From Candidatus Latescibacterota bacterium (GTDB lineage Bacteria; Latescibacterota; UBA2968; SICM01), in NCBI GenBank assembly GCA_965217865.1, contig CBDCJO010000002.1, positions 3,616,001-3,680,000 of the forward strand: a stretch of DNA of 64,000 nt, read 5' to 3'. How positions within the stretch are numbered: position 1 is the stretch's first letter; the number at the start of each line of letters is the position of its first letter. The notes under the pieces are model-generated. The model was given only the letters and a program-made list of their open reading frames with translations, made no database searches and was not told where the DNA came from. The position numbers and the translations under genes were made by a program. Below are positions 22,384-36,606 of this stretch, in pieces.

Positions 22384-22519
22384 ACGAATCACGAATCACG
22401 AATCACGAATCACGAATCACGAATCACGAATCACGAATCACGAATCACGAATCACGAATCACGAATCACGAATCACGAATCACGAATCACGAATCACGAA
22501 TCACGAATCACGAATCACG
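22384..22519. repeat. Perfect heptamer array (ACGAATC)19
   Basis: 19 exact units 22384-22516 plus ACG. Confidence 0.97.
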
Positions 22520-24677: not shown

Positions 24678-24876
24678 ACGAATCACGAATCACGAATCAC
24701 GAATCACGAATCACGAATCACGAATCACGAATCACGAATCACGAATCACGAATCACGAATCACGAATCACGAATCACGAATCACGAATCACGAATCACGA
24801 ATCACGAATCACGAATCACGAATCACGAATCACGAATCACGAATCACGAATCACGAATCACGAATCACGAATCACG
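24678..24876. repeat. Perfect heptamer array (ACGAATC)28
   Basis: 28 exact units 24678-24873 plus ACG, ending 3 bp from the stop codon of the gene at 24880. Confidence 0.97.
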
Positions 24877-27184: not shown

Positions 27185-27754
27185 TCAAGACTTAGTTGGA
27201 GTGGGATTTTGATTCAACGCGGTGTAACACTCGGGCTTTAAGACACCTACAAAAGGCAGATTCCGATATTGCTGATTGAAGTCGAGACCATAACCGACCA
27301 CAAATTCGTCGGGGATGGTGAACCCGCAGTATTCGATCGGAATCTCGATAGCACGGGTGGCGGGTTTGTCAATGAGAGTACACACCTTAAGACTTTTAGG
27401 CCCACGGGCGTTGAGGCTTCGAAGCAGGTAGTTCAATGTGAGACCCGTGTCTATGATTCCCTCGACGATTAGGACGTGACGTCCCGTGATGCTTATATCC
27501 AGATCTTTGAGGATGCGTACGACACCGGAACTCTGTGTAGACTGGCCATAACTGGAAATGGCCATCGATTCGATTTCGACATGAATTGTTATTTCCCGAG
27601 ACAGGTCCGACAGAAAAAAGAGAGAACCTTTCAGGATACCGATGAGGACGATTGGCCCATCCAGGGCCCCGTAATCCTTAGAGATCTGCCTTCCCAGGGA
27701 TTTCACTTTTTCAAGGATGGCCTGGGGATCGATCAGGATCTTATGAATATCTTT
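27185..27754 (-). pseudogene. hpt: Hypoxanthine phosphoribosyltransferase, native start removed by IS1595
   Basis: ILKGS..FLSDL, ISSYG, VLIVEGIIDTGLT (Gly at the usual Asp), FVVGYGLD..YRNLP; frame runs into the IS terminal repeat at 27755. Confidence 0.85.
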
Positions 27755-28589
27755 GGTAATTAGGAAGATATTGGTACCAGATTCACCAGATATGAAGCAA
27801 TAATTGGGAAGAGATCCTCGTCTTCTTGGTTGAATCTGAACTCTGTTTCCTTCAGGTATAAATGGAAATGATGTCGAGGGATTCCTCTGTATTGATATAG
27901 CCAATTTTTAGAAAAACTCCAGAAGCCTTCGATGCCATTGATGTGATGTCGGCCTTTGCCTTTGGGCACCCCTTCTTCTTTTCGAACAACCACGTGGTCA
28001 CCTTTGACTGACAGCCAAGTGTAGGCGTGCCAGTCATCGGTGTAGTATAGACTGCCTGCTTTGGTGTGTGAGGTCACAAGCGGTGTAAGGGTGTTTCGAC
28101 TTCGATCCGGAATGGGAAAGGTGAGGACTTTTCCGTTCCTCTGATAAAGCCCGAAAACCAAGTGTTTTCCGGCTGCTCCCCATCCACGCTTACCCTTATG
28201 ATGACCTCCATACATCGCCTCGTCCAACTCGATCTCACCCCAAAGCACCTGGTCCGTAAAGCTATGATCGTAGATGGCCTGGCGAAACGTGGTATAAATC
28301 CGCTGAGCCGTTTTCAGCGATACGGACAGGTAGTGCCTGGATCGGTAAGAGGGCACTCCCAATACAAACAGATAAAGTAAATGGGCAAGCTCGTCAAATG
28401 AAATTCGAAGCCTTTCAAGATAAGTGCCCGTGAAATCTTTAAACCGATATCCACACCGTGAACACCTGAACCGATCGTCTTTTAATAAGGGCAACCTGCG
28501 CTGATAATCGCAGCTTGGACATCGCCTTTTTCCACCCCAACGGGCTGCACGAAAATAGGCCCTACTTATCTTGCAGTCATTTGCTAACT
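27755..28589 (-). mobile_element. IS1595-family element, left end deleted (transposase ORF 27760-28602)
   Basis: Near-identical to the copy at 53076-53972; right IR at 27755-27780; identity stops at 28589 so the left IR and native start are missing. Confidence 0.9.
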
Positions 28590-28684
28590 CTAAGCGCAGC
28601 AAACAGTTGTATTATAATATCTTATAAAAAAAGACGATCAAGTTATAAATTTACATCTGTTTTAAAAATATATTGAAAAACCGC

Positions 28685-28713
28685 TTGACATCCAAGGAAC
28701 AAATGATTATATT
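28685..28713 (+). promoter_or_regulatory. Sigma-70 promoter driving the putative ncRNA
   Basis: TTGACA 28685-28690, 17 bp, TATATT 28708-28713; predicted +1 at ~28720. Confidence 0.7.
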
Positions 28714-28720
28714 ATCTGAC

Positions 28721-28883
28721 GAACCCCAAGAGGTCCTAAAATTTCTCTGAAACGCGGGTCGGAAGGTTCTGGAACCTCCTCTCAGCTAAGTTGATCAAGG
28801 GTTAAAGCGAATCGAGTAAAGCTGAGGGCAAGACCGAAGGATGCAGAGAATTGATAAAGGTCACTTGGGGTTCACTGTTTTTT
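28721..28883 (+). ncRNA. Putative ~155-nt structured RNA of unrecognised family
   Basis: Nested stems GAACCCCAAG/CTTGGGGTTC, TTCTCTG/CAGAGAA, GGTC/GACC, CTCTCAGCT/AGCTGAGGG; G-U wobbles and A-rich loops favour the + strand; T-tract follows. Confidence 0.65.
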
Positions 28884-29843
28884 ATTCCCAACCATCTGAT
28901 TAAGGCCATACTTATTCAGCAGGTTGTGGAAATCCCTCCTGTAAAATATCCGCACGTTTACGTCAGGATAGAGCTTTTTCAACCGACGTAACTTGCGGTT
29001 TTTTTTGGTCACCAGGCTCTGCTTCAGGGTGGTCAATTCGATAAAGGTATCCGAATCGACCAGGTAGAAGTCGGGTGAGAATGCCTCCGTTACTCTCCCT
29101 TCCCCATCCCATTCCAGCGGAAACGTCTTCGGTTCGAATTCCCACTGTATTTGATAAAAATCCAGTATTCTTGCGAACTCCTCTTCGCTCGTGTTTGAAA
29201 AAGCCGGTTTTTTTCCGTTCGGGGAGGGTTGGGTAACTGTTCCCGGAGGTTCGGATCTCTCCGTTTCAGGGAGGTGAACCGTCAGGGACCGCTGACCGAC
29301 GGCATTTACGATGATCTGGACGCAGGCCTGAACATCGAGCCGATCTGTGGAAAGGATGATATCATAGAGAAGGGGGTCATCGATCTTCCGACCATAGAGG
29401 GACTGGATGAAGCGGGCTTGATTCCGTTCCGCTTCCCTTAATGATTCAAGGGCGTGTTCTCGATCGGGTCCCAGCACATCAATCGTCCGTGACATACGGG
29501 TTTCTTCGAAGGCGAAGAATCGGACGTGGAGCGCATCCTGAAAATCCTGGAAGATACACTGGCCACCCCGTCCCAGGAGGATGAAATTCTCCTTCTCCGA
29601 CTTGTCCCTTATGAAAGAGTCGACGAGGTCAAGATAGAGCTTCCGATCGGAGAGGAGCCTTTCCCAGAATGAAGGGGCACGTTCCTGGATCTGGTCCAGA
29701 TCCCCTTCGTCCAGGCCGTATTCCAGGACCAGATGTTCCAGGCCCTTTCGATCGATGAGTACAAACCCAAGCCTTTCAGAAAGGGATTGGGCAACCTCTT
29801 CTCCGTTGCTTCCGAGTTGTCGGGAGATGGTGATGACGGCCAT
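28872..29843 (-). CDS. Cytidylate-kinase-like domain fused to a PD-(D/E)xK-like nuclease domain
   Basis: ITISRQLGSNG, LGRGG, YDIILST (cytidylate kinase-like family); C-terminal SEEEFARILD..WEFEP..FSPDFYL..FIELTT. Confidence 0.75.
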   Translation of the reverse strand: MAVITISRQLGSNGEEVAQSLSERLGFVLIDRKGLEHLVLEYGLDEGDLDQIQERAPSFWERLLSDRKLYLDLVDSFIRDKSEKENFILLGRGGQCIFQDFQDALHVRFFAFEETRMSRTIDVLGPDREHALESLREAERNQARFIQSLYGRKIDDPLLYDIILSTDRLDVQACVQIIVNAVGQRSLTVHLPETERSEPPGTVTQPSPNGKKPAFSNTSEEEFARILDFYQIQWEFEPKTFPLEWDGEGRVTEAFSPDFYLVDSDTFIELTTLKQSLVTKKNRKLRRLKKLYPDVNVRIFYRRDFHNLLNKYGLNQMVGNKKQ

Positions 29844-29893
29844 TGCAAGCCAGAAGGGAGGAACTTCTCAAGAGGATAAAGAAAAACTGATCT

Positions 29894-29922
29894 AAGATAG
29901 AGGAATGACAAGAGGTTGTCAA
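29894..29922 (-). promoter_or_regulatory. Sigma-70 promoter with palindromic operator TGACAA-N4-TTGTCA (29906-29921)
   Basis: Minus strand TTGACA-17-TATCTT; the palindrome overlaps the -35. Confidence 0.6.
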
Positions 29923-30273
29923 GAGAAAAGGGTGGAAACAGAACAGCCCCGGGGTTAAAAAACCCAGGGGCCAACCGTCAAATTTATGGATTCAAGTCGG
30001 GGCGGTGGCCATCCCCTTCCGCCGCTTCCGCAATCTTCCTCTCCCGTTGTTGTGAAGATGGCGGGTATATTCGTCGGATTATAACCACACGCCCCGCAAA
30101 CAGCTTGATCTCCTTACCTCTGTCATCAATTGATGCACAAGGCCCCTGAGGGAGTAACCTTACCCGTTGGGAGGGAGGGTTACGAATAAGGTAAGTCGTC
30201 CTTCAGAGGCCTCATGGTATAAACGATTAACCGGACAGGTGGTTCCTAAATTCTCGAGGCCATTCTCCGAAAT

Positions 30274-33559: not shown

Positions 33560-34423
33560 TGGACATAACCGATGAGCCTGTCGACCCCTTGGGTGACCTG
33601 ACAAAGTGCTGATCAGACGTGCTGGATTGGTCGACACCCCATAAGATCAGCCCCAAAATGGTGGCACTCAGTATCCGCTTTTCTCCTTCCATATGAATCC
33701 CCCAATCGTGTTAATGGACCGGGATTCAATTGATAGGGTCTTAAATCTTCAGGGGATGAAAAACCGTCGGGGGAAAACGGAGTTCAGAACAGGTCCCTCT
33801 GCCGCGGGGGCAGACAAGGTGAGTGCGGACCTCCATCCTCAAAAGACGGGCAACGCCTTGAATCCCGGGCCTCAGAATCCTCACCAATTCAGGTCATTCG
33901 ACCACCTTAATGCAGTTTTGTGAGTTGAATGGATTGGGCACGGTTTCGGCCTCGGGGTCGTTCTTCCATTTCCCATCGACCATGAAGCGGTACTCATATG
34001 TCCCAGGTTCGAGCATCATATATGTGCTCCAAGAATGCTTCTTGCCCCGTTTCAAACGCCGGGATTCCGTATCCCAATTGTTAAAGGACCCGGTCAGAAT
34101 CACCTCTTTTGCTTTGGGGGCGAGTAGGCGAAGCTTCAAAAGGGCTTTCTCCTTAATCTGCCTCACCCGTTCTCTTGTCAGTCCGAACCAGTCTCCGATC
34201 TCTTCAAGCGTCATCTCTTCGGCACCGTCCAGACCGAAATAAAGCCGAATGATCTCCGATTCCCGCTTTTCAAGGGTATCCAACACCGCCCATATCTCCT
34301 CCCGCATCTCCTTCGGGTCCATGGCTTCGTCAAAGGATGCTTGAACCGGGTCGCTCAGGGTCTGAAGCAGGTGTATCTATTCTGAGATAACAAGAGAAAA
34401 GCAGATAAAGGTCCAAGCAAGAT

Positions 34424-35449
34424 TCAGGCAGCCTTGTGGATGGTCTGGGATGTTCTTTGCCGATTGATTTCTATGCGGCGCTGCCGAGCCTCCTCCTTTC
34501 GACCTTGTCGGTGGTGAAGAATCTTTTGATGCTGGCCTTTATGCCTCTGAAGAGGCGTGACATACTGTATTGCCCCGTGATAGCGTTCGGCGTTGTAGCT
34601 GTGAATGAAGGAATCAATCAGGCCTTCCAGTTGATGGAATGTGAAGATGTCCTGGAAGCGCAGCCAGTCGTATTTGAATGTCCGGAAAAAGGCTTCGATC
34701 CAGGCGTTGTCCGTGGGTGTTTGATATCGGGCAAACAGCTGCGAGATGCCCAGGTCCTTGAAGAATTGGGCCATCGATTTGGCCTTCATCTGAGATCCGT
34801 GATCTGAGAGGGCTGTCAAGCTTATGGGCCCAGTGTCCAGCAGTCCTTCGTTGGCAAGGGCTTGATCCCAAGCCTGTTTGACCTGCTCCACGGTCGCGTT
34901 GAAGGAGAGCTTCCATCCTACGATCTTCCTGGAATACACGTCGAGAATGGCGGTAAAATACAGGAACAAACCGAAAAATGGGATGTAGGTCAGGTCCCAG
35001 CTCCAGACCTGATTAGGACCTTCAGGTTTGACCTGGGGCTTGCTCTGCTTGACCGGCGTCCTCACCTGTTTCCTGCGTGCCAGACGTTCTTTCCTGGCCT
35101 GTCGGTAGAAGCTGGAGGCCGAGGCCTGCACTACCCCCTTCTCTGAGGCTACCACCGCCAGCTGATGGGGAGGCAGATCGGCATAGGTCTCATCCCTTAA
35201 GAGGGCCGGGATTTGCTCTTTCTCCTCCCTCAGCAATCCGTGTGGGGCCTCATCAGGGGCGGGCCCGGGCTTCCCATCCAAAAGCGGGTCCGACACCCCA
35301 TCCAGCTTCTCTTCTCGATCTCGCCGGCTCCAGGCACAATACCGCTGGAGGGGAAGCTGTAGGATCTCGCAAGAACGGGTGAGTTTCACCCCTTTCTCCT
35401 TGGCCCGATGGACCATTAAGAGGATCTCGCGTTTGACCTCAGCTTGCAC
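34424..35449 (-). CDS. IS3 OrfB DDE transposase (integrase core)
   Basis: WSWDLTY, LDVYSRKIVGW, SDHGSQM, DNAWIEAFFRTFK. Confidence 0.92.
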   Translation of the reverse strand: MQAEVKREILLMVHRAKEKGVKLTRSCEILQLPLQRYCAWSRRDREEKLDGVSDPLLDGKPGPAPDEAPHGLLREEKEQIPALLRDETYADLPPHQLAVVASEKGVVQASASSFYRQARKERLARRKQVRTPVKQSKPQVKPEGPNQVWSWDLTYIPFFGLFLYFTAILDVYSRKIVGWKLSFNATVEQVKQAWDQALANEGLLDTGPISLTALSDHGSQMKAKSMAQFFKDLGISQLFARYQTPTDNAWIEAFFRTFKYDWLRFQDIFTFHQLEGLIDSFIHSYNAERYHGAIQYVTPLQRHKGQHQKILHHRQGRKEEARQRRIEINRQRTSQTIHKAA

Positions 35450-35472
35450 CCGGTGGCCCTTGATCGGGCCTG

Positions 35473-35808
35473 TCAGATCCCATTCACACTTTTTTTTAGC
35501 AGGGAAAGTTCCACAGATTGCTCAATGATCGTTTGCTCCAGGCGTGCCCGCTCTTTGCGCAGCTGCTCCACCTCCTCAGCCGATACCATCGGCTTGCGGC
35601 TCCGGCGACCCTTGAACTCCTTGAGGGCCCCGGACTTGACCGACTCACGAATACGCTTTAGATCCGAGGAATGAATGCCCCATTTCCGCAGCACCTGTGC
35701 AATGGGAACATCTCCCCGGCTGGCTTCAAGGAAAATCTCATACTTCTGTTCCGGGGACAAGCTCCTGCGCTTCTTGACCGGGTCACTGTTTGAGGACAGT
35801 TGCTCCAT
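35473..35808 (-). CDS. IS3 OrfA HTH protein; -1 frameshift signal A8G at 35489-35497
   Basis: SPEQKYEI HTH; slippery run; the -1 frame is open into orfB; hairpin ggcccgatcaagggcc downstream. Confidence 0.85.
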   Translation of the reverse strand: MEQLSSNSDPVKKRRSLSPEQKYEIFLEASRGDVPIAQVLRKWGIHSSDLKRIRESVKSGALKEFKGRRSRKPMVSAEEVEQLRKERARLEQTIIEQSVELSLLKKSVNGI

Positions 35809-36606
35809 CTTTACTCCTCCTGTGAGGTCAGGGATATCCCAAAATATGTATCCCTTCTCAACCCTACAGGCAACCAGGATCTTGCTTCGACCTTGCCCCC
35901 GTTTTTTCGGGCGATCTCAGACAAAAGATACAGGTTAGATCCGGATTCCTCATCAAAATGGGCATCGAGGGATATAGGCGGCTGAATGTCGCGCAGGGTT
36001 TGATCTATCTCCTCAAACGAAACACCCATGTCATCAGCAACCTGCTCTGTTGAAGGGGCATCCTGCAGCTCCTGCTGCAAACCCGGAGAAAGACCTCAAG
36101 ATACGGGCCGAGAGATCGAGCCGGCTAATGGGGATCCGAACGGTCCTTTCCACTCGGAGGGCATCAAGGATGGCCTGACGCACCCACCAGACCCCATAAG
36201 AGATAAATTTGAAGCCACACCTCCAATCAAACCGCTCCGCGGCTTTTAGGAGCCCGATGTTTCCTGCGCTGACCAACTCCTCCAGGCTAAGCCCCCGATT
36301 GCGGTAGCCCTTAGCAACACTCACGACGAAGCGGAGATTGGCCTGGACCAGCTCATTCCTCGCGTCCACGTCACCTTCCTGGATGGCGCGGGCTATCCGG
36401 CCCTCCTCTTCCGCAGAGAGGAGTCGGGAGCGAGAAATCTCCTTAAAGTACGTGGTCAGTGACCAATAAGAGGTCTTCTCGAGTTCCTGGCTGTCCATAG
36501 TTGAGATCCTCATGCTCATACGGAAAGATTTCGTTCAAATTTAAGGGTCTAATTAGCCTTTGACAATCGGGGGAATCCTGATTTTGGGGTTCGAAAAACC
36601 TGAAAA

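Follow-up and report, generated by a model that had tools for sequence, protein, structure and literature searches.

A promoter-led structured RNA with a covarying terminal helix, associated with a nuclease-like gene and hpt in several bacterial phyla

Introduction

What is the short promoter-led element that converges on a nuclease-domain gene in a Candidatus Latescibacterota genome? The window, as we use the term, is the whole analysed stretch of 64,000 nucleotides; the genome it comes from is called G000. An earlier note, made from the sequence alone, described a self-contained structured RNA gene at this site and proposed that it is a new sRNA, a divergent 6S-like RNA or a partner of the adjacent nuclease. 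6S RNA is the natural starting reading because none of the 132 genomes of the window's class, G000 included, contains an RF00013 6S, and because the zapA locus leaves no room for one. G000 has two zapA-family genes (L037, L038), with about 70 bases from the first to the next gene.

Results

A folded RNA gene at the window locus

The interval 28721-28873 on the + strand is confirmed as a real, promoter-led, folded RNA gene (Table 1). The -35 element TTGACA (28685-28690) and the -10 element TATATT (28708-28713) are separated by a 17-nt spacer, and together they form the top-scoring promoter site within 27500-30000. A perfect 10-bp stem, pairing 28721-28730 with 28864-28873, starts seven bases past TATATT. 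The terminal helix of the window RNA consists of these 10 bp, an A.A mismatch and 4 bp that contain a tandem of G-U and U-G pairs. These tandem wobble pairs may resemble the closing stem of 6S RNA.

The predicted fold contains the nested helices and the side hairpin, mostly with high pair probabilities, and A accounts for 47% of its unpaired bases. Folding favours the + strand (-54.8 kcal/mol, against -47.6 for the - strand). The folding z-score is -2.35 for the RNA with its flanks, with 5 of 200 shuffles equally good, and -4.1 for the 153-nt RNA alone (25 shuffles). The RNA contains no ORF of at least 70 aa and is followed by a T6 tract. The TGA stop codon of the kinase-nuclease gene (28872-28874, - strand) overlaps the final two stem bases. 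The earlier description of promoter, closing stem, nested helices, A-rich loops, strand, T-tract and stop-codon overlap thus stands, as does the absence of an ORF. Its side hairpin is present in the window fold but is not a conserved feature, because rod-like folds are predicted for the two nearest homologues. An Rfam search of the window gave no match at the RNA, neither at the gathering score nor at E<=10. The RNA is single-copy in G000.

One sponge metatranscriptome (run X1) contains a single 199-nt contig that is 100% identical to 28738-28936, with a depth of 4.7. It spans most of the RNA and extends 63 nt past the predicted 3' end into the kinase-nuclease gene; there is no other X1 contig within 27100-29900. 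Contigs of run X2 cover the insertion sequence only. The one unstranded X1 contig is a weak hint that the RNA is expressed.

Table 1. Features of the RNA locus (window positions)
Feature	Position	Strand	Basis or remark
hpt, hypoxanthine-phosphoribosyltransferase-like	27185..27753	-	PF00156; first codons replaced by IS
IS1595-family element between RNA promoter and hpt	27754..28588	-	outside the system
sigma70-type promoter of the RNA, TTGACA-17-TATATT	28685..28713	+	11/12 consensus matches
structured non-coding RNA, 153 nt	28721..28873	+	both ends deduced from the promoter, the stem and the U tail
terminal helix, 5' arm	28721..28735	+	covariation
variable interior	28743..28850	+	predicted fold; unconserved across the family
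interior helix	28743-28749/28844-28850	+	predicted fold
side hairpin	28761-28779	+	predicted fold
interior helix	28781-28787/28820-28826	+	predicted fold
terminal helix, 3' arm	28859..28873	+	covariation; also predicted from the 5' arm model
323-aa protein, cytidylate-kinase-like and T7-endonuclease-I-like domains	28872..29843	-	inferred partner; profile and fold matches
U tract (T6), likely transcript end	28878..28883	+	sequence; found again in homologues

Elsewhere in the window, short tandem repeats occur at 22384-22519, where they encode a repeated ITNHESR within an ORF, and at 24678-24876. The region 33894-36519 presumably holds a sigma-factor-like gene that appears to be interrupted by an IS3-like element (ORFs 34424-35449 and 35473-35808).

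Homologues share a covarying terminal helix

A DNA similarity search against 100 relatives matched only G078, a genome of the same class. It carries two copies of the RNA, one between the kinase-nuclease gene and hpt at a locus without the insertion sequence, the other at a distance of 13.5 kb. Each is led by a TTGACA promoter of its own; the end helix is shared and the interiors differ. These homologues, the closest to the window RNA, are the ones that fold as rods. The second copy (L004:1416-1669) follows a decayed piece of the 3' end of the nuclease gene, which suggests a local duplication. G078 also has a weak c-di-GMP-I-like match at L004:2819-2900.

A scan of the genome collection with the single protein as query gave no match. 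The homologues given here come from loci around relatives of the protein, 80 from metagenomes and 80 from named genomes. Many of these loci carry an element with the promoter, the end helix and a U tail. By their record titles the carriers belong to Methylomirabilota, Acidobacteria, Spirochaetia, Chloroflexota, Syntrophobacteraceae and other delta proteobacteria, Bacillota (Syntrophomonadaceae), Coriobacteriia and Actinomycetota. The family has in common a TTGACA promoter, a covarying terminal helix and a U tail, and its interior varies freely: members are 81-417 nt long, with interiors of about 50-390 nt.

In an alignment of 21 sequences, 13 of the 16 terminal-helix pairs show changes on both sides. 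In one of 28 sequences, double changes occur at 9 of 12 pairs and 97.6% of the cells are paired; none of 500 shuffles reaches the observed paired cells or double changes, and slid controls are far lower. The homologues and covariation that the RNA reading called for are thus found, and across phyla. The helix sequence is also kept beyond what pairing needs, with a CC-R-AG core, the A.A mismatch in 14 of 21 sequences and the G-U/U-G tandem. Such conservation across phyla points to a protein site.

The first homologue sets were chosen for having the promoter and the helix, so two independent model checks matter. Model R1 describes the helix and is promoter-free. It led to 13 further accepted copies, all with TTGACA (11) or TTGACT (2) at the same distance; three weak matches were dropped and one partial match was completed later. 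Model R2 describes the promoter and the 5' arm by sequence only. Among 20 checked matches, 15 have a 3' arm and a U tail 104-417 nt further on (13 new, 2 from training). Two of the remainder are cut by contig ends, and the three lacking TTGACA had no 3' arm and were dropped. A detector built on strict rules picks out a single site in the 6.4-Mb G000 genome, the window RNA itself. It finds none in 28 kinase-only loci or in 49 6S loci, two in 30 hpt loci of the class (G000 and G078), and members at 17/80 and 14/80 nuclease loci.

The interiors fold well (z from -2.2 to -11.6) and are elaborately folded within lineages, and many homologues are multibranched. They are 62% purine and 16% U, free in length and sequence, and GNRA makes up 21 of 66 predicted tetraloops. 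No interior motif runs across the family: the best 6-mer occurs in 19 of 50 members, with shuffles reaching up to 15.

Weak model matches (L284-L286, L306, L307, L313; L336, L350, L355; L364-L370; L378) were dropped for a missing promoter or 3' arm or for lying within coding sequence. L016 and L021 were rejected as members since they fall in a kinase ORF, and two viral-contig pattern matches had neither the family promoter nor the 5' arm on inspection. L375-L377 stand outside the counts. At L079, L085, L089 and L102, an RNA-like element with promoter, closing stem and U tail occupies the same place with another stem sequence; its interior resembles that of L084. These four are possible divergent members and are kept outside the models and counts.

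The RNA co-occurs with the nuclease-like gene

The RNA is present in 35 of 80 genomes that bear the T7-endonuclease-I-like domain (G132-G211). It was not found in the other 45, some of which were searched deeper, where the searches scored the best 20-150 candidates per incomplete MAG. In the window's class it occurs in both genomes with the nuclease domain (G000, G078) and was found in none of the 130 without it. A sample of 150 genomes from the phylum of G147, counted after seven weak matches had been dropped, contains 5 genomes with the domain; the RNA occurs in 3 of these and was not found, among the best 20-150 candidates per genome, in the other 2 or in any of the 145 without the domain. 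Without the training genomes G147 and G174 the counts are 1/3 vs 0/145 (p = 0.02). The carriers are related to one another, and the genomes are incomplete MAGs. The nuclease-like protein may often exist without the RNA. Upstream of hpt, no RNA was seen in 28 class genomes that lack the nuclease gene. The association proposed between the RNA and the adjacent gene is supported by these comparisons, and co-occurrence makes the nuclease-like domain the likeliest binder of the helix.

In 28 of the 35 carriers the RNA lies beside the nuclease-hpt locus; in the others it lies elsewhere, with up to five copies per genome. Among the 28 loci, tabulated by hand, the RNA is between the two genes and antisense in 6, past the nuclease gene, where the contig ends, in 1, after hpt in 18 (15 on the opposite strand, 3 on the same strand) and before the nuclease gene in 3. 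The convergent overlap with the nuclease stop codon therefore holds at the window but not as a general arrangement, other members having other positions, the sense strand or other contigs. The RNA and the nuclease gene are on separate contigs in G174 and G213, and G147, G149 and G132 have several RNA copies, each with its own promoter. Linkage in cis is thus not needed, and the off-locus copies suggest that the RNA acts in trans.

Two loci from Dehalococcoidia (L330, L331) hold members of 417 nt and 207 nt that converge on a further hpt copy, a divergent one; no nuclease gene is visible at either locus.

The linked protein carries a T7-endonuclease-I-like domain

The neighbouring protein's N-terminal domain (aa 3-188) is PF13189. 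Its kinase fold comes nearest to kinase-like structures that are themselves uncharacterised (3hdt, Z 22.2, rmsd 1.7, 164 aligned), and fold searches of the PDB with the whole protein gave kinase matches only. The C-terminal domain (about aa 210-316) has no Pfam or NCBIfam name. A profile match over the core (E 1.1e-5) relates it to T7 endonuclease I, and further matches are to endonuclease and resolvase families in PHROGs and to viral models of endonuclease I; Atlas features (0.88) serve as a lead only. The single-sequence structure model of this domain has a pLDDT of 40.6.

T7 endonuclease I cuts DNA junctions. As in that family (PF05367; PDB 3cae, 2pfj, 1m0d), the acidic catalytic positions are kept. 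E220, E237, P257, D258, E269, T271 and K281 are invariant in the 145-146 distinct sequences that cover each site. In contrast to the T7 family, the site of the catalytic-motif Lys is occupied by Thr (146/146); the invariant K281 lies in the next helix and may stand in for the missing Lys. Judged by these residues and the matches above, the domain has a PD-(D/E)xK core with acidic metal ligands; its PD-EXX-K pattern, which adjoins a basic KKNRK helix, is among those that the accessible text of PMC3424549 describes for this fold. A further difference is that the domain is cellular, RNA-linked and fused to Hpt or to the kinase-like domain. Its architectures comprise a stand-alone form before hpt, the kinase-like fusion and, in Chloroflexota, a fusion to Hpt. 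At one locus (L360, G214) the nuclease-like gene does not precede hpt but comes after an ORF resembling adenine deaminase, presumably another purine-salvage context.

Structure prediction of the domain with Hpt gave a score of 0.55, compared with 0.00 for the best of 3 controls; among 157 solved pairs 116 reach the prediction mark, and among 215 mismatched pairs 2 do so, but scores at or below 0.60 include only 18 of the solved pairs and both mismatches. The runs agree in at least 80% of contacts, with a partner pLDDT of at least 75. We read this as a weak indication that the two proteins may bind each other.

The Hpt loop and the insertion sequence

In the window Hpt, EG replaces ED in the PRPP-binding loop; the 24 other readable Hpt of the class all keep ED (4 unread). 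A change to EG or EA is found in G000, in G078 and in 7 of 67 readable nuclease loci. Of the 23 loci that have a nearby RNA, 7 show the change, vs 0 of the 44 without; six of the seven had a known RNA, and the seventh genome was then searched, with the RNA directly after hpt. The cases fall in about three lineages. Besides the window, EG/EA Hpt are seen at L126, L162, L166, L167, L168, L170, L186 and L187, only in genomes with the RNA at the nuclease-hpt locus.

The window hpt is the only one found in G000. The IS1595 element beside it is absent at the syntenic G078 locus and has more than a dozen near-identical copies in G000; the window copy lacks about 17 terminal bases that most others have. 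As the element replaced the first codons of hpt, the gene may be inactive, or its start may now lie within the IS.

Comparison with known RNA classes

6S RNA is a rod of about 200 nt whose two long arms flank a central bubble, according to the accessible text of PMC8876501 and PMC9130861. The window family resembles 6S RNA and Ms1 in its strong housekeeping promoter, in the pairing of its ends in a closing stem and in helices broken by internal loops. It differs in length (81-417 nt), in lacking a constant central bubble or apical arm and in being often multibranched. Rfam gave no match at the RNA in 20 and 16 homologue loci, and RF00013 scored neither there nor in the window. A canonical RF00013 6S is present elsewhere in 23 of the 35 carriers. 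The family is also patchy and tied to one gene, whereas a 6S is usually a single gene present throughout a lineage; not found in 130 of 132 class genomes, it does not fill the 6S gap of that class. On these grounds we reject the identification as 6S RNA, and the suggestion of a divergent 6S is not supported.

Bacterial Y RNAs (YrlA, Yrn1, with Ro60/Rsr) are another parallel. In the accessible part of PMC4201824 their genes are described as adjoining a dedicated protein gene, modular and often present more than once per genome, likenesses that extend to our family; the protein binds at a short terminal motif, and through the RNA Ro60 is tethered to an effector. The protein linked to our family is, in contrast, a T7-endonuclease-I-like domain, and no Ro60. 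TROVE/Ro60 (PF05731) is found in 0 of 5 carrier genomes tested, G000 included, and the RNA has no Rfam Y RNA or YrlA match and no conserved tRNA-like module. It is thus not a Y RNA.

SRP RNA, RNase P RNA and tmRNA are rejected because G000 has each of them elsewhere (Rfam/ARAGORN), and a riboswitch or cis-leader because members are mostly antisense or downstream of neighbour genes, or stand alone. A search for guide or antisense pairing within G000 found none beyond shuffles (best 28.2 bits vs 28.2-34.2).

A PhoH2-associated RNA candidate (bioRxiv 10.64898/2026.10.21.760802) is similar in that, in the accessible text, a structured RNA with lineage-specific architectures is put forward as the partner of a nuclease-domain protein encoded next to it. 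It differs in the protein (PIN-PhoH) and in the lineages. The main text of that preprint contains no hpt, hypoxanthine or cytidylate, and its database and supplements may hold the family unnamed. The same three terms are absent from the main texts, supplements aside, of PMC8632094 and PMC11109978. The full-text literature, with subscription papers largely outside its scope, yielded no description of the RNA. With its promoter, covarying helix and U tail kept across homologues and no Rfam match, the family is apparently new, that is, real and undescribed, in keeping with the first of the three original proposals.

Discussion

Our preferred explanation, to our minds about an even bet, is that the terminal helix docks the nuclease-like domain in a ribonucleoprotein with Hpt. 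The fixed helix would be the docking site of the T7-endonuclease-I-like domain, and would thus be bound and not merely stable. The docked domain would form the ribonucleoprotein together with Hpt, and the RNA would be abundant and act in trans. Once bound, it would serve as a decoy or tether that restrains the nuclease-like domain, and Hpt through it; this restraint would couple nucleic-acid turnover to purine salvage. Its role would be comparable to that of a Y RNA tethering Ro60 to its effector. The idea that the RNA is a partner of the adjacent nuclease is, through co-occurrence, the best-supported reading; binding of the RNA by the domain is what we infer from it. A more far-reaching form, which we hold only tentatively and consider doubtful, pictures an ancient cross-phylum ribonucleoprotein: a resolvase-fold domain would have turned to the fixed RNA helix as its target, carry interchangeable payloads of 50-390 nt and be docked on Hpt. 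The RNA would gate purine salvage directly or be a purine reserve released by the nuclease, with the Hpt loop changing where the RNA is present.

The RNA could instead be the substrate of the nuclease, abundant, purine-rich and cut after recognition of the helix, so as to feed salvage by the kinase-like domain and Hpt. The composition of the interiors and their lack of constraint, the multiplied copies in some genomes, the invariant acidic residues and the salvage-type neighbour enzymes would all suit such a role. Purine-rich loops are, however, common in structured RNAs, the interiors are elaborately folded within lineages, and Hpt acts on free bases, not on nucleotides freed by a nuclease; we consider this reading unlikely. 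Next in our ranking, and likewise unlikely, is Hpt as the direct partner, inhibited or scaffolded by the RNA, with the nuclease-like domain a further subunit or a bystander. The RNA beside an hpt without a nuclease gene in view at L330 and L331 suggests that Hpt could be the partner, the position just downstream of hpt on the opposite strand is the commonest (15/28), and the loop change is confined to RNA-linked Hpt. Yet hpt occurs in 113 of 132 class genomes and the RNA was found only in the two with the nuclease gene, some Hpt from RNA-less genomes of the class are nearer to the window Hpt than is that of G078, and both genomes with the L330 and L331 copies also encode a nuclease-Hpt fusion.

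It is improbable that the RNA is an additional, divergent 6S-like molecule binding RNA polymerase and linked to nuclease and hpt by synteny only. The promoter, the closing stem and the rods of G078 would suit this reading; RF00013 is missing from 12 of the 35 carriers as well as from the whole class, the zapA locus of G000 has no space for a 6S, and some bacteria have two 6S paralogues (PMC8876501, accessible text). The separate canonical 6S in most carriers, the range of sizes and architectures, the absence of any RF00013 score at the homologues and the failure to find the RNA in 130 of 132 class genomes weigh against it. Action in cis, as an antisense transcript or a bidirectional terminator that makes hpt independent of the gene upstream, seems quite improbable: it would suit the window and the 6 of 28 loci with the RNA antisense between both genes, as well as the end that overlaps the stop codon, but not the members that follow hpt, precede the nuclease gene, occupy the sense strand or lie at a distance under promoters of their own, nor the lack of pairing to the rest of G000 beyond shuffled controls. 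Most improbable by our estimate is a small mobile DNA element with terminal inverted repeats and a free interior, mobilised by the resolvase-like protein. Inverted ends, variable interiors, several copies per genome, the decayed nuclease-gene piece before the second G078 copy and the resemblance of the domain to a junction resolvase would be in line with it. Against it, every accepted copy has its promoter outside the repeats at a fixed distance, the G-U pairs and U tail are strand-specific, GNRA is frequent among the predicted tetraloops, and G000 has a single copy.

Non-coding RNA classes that span many bacterial phyla are few, and whole-length models can easily overlook one that combines a fixed end-helix with a free interior. 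Through the family, a conserved but unannotated nuclease-like domain becomes approachable for the first time, one which automatic cluster names label as a hypoxanthine-guanine phosphoribosyltransferase family protein. The system is small: the protein domain has about 110 aa, the shortest RNA measures 81 nt, and the enzyme assay is a standard one. If the helix serves as a portable handle for protein binding, as the docking reading proposes, the family would represent a second Y-RNA-like architecture, built on a different protein, and possibly an RNA-level control of purine salvage.
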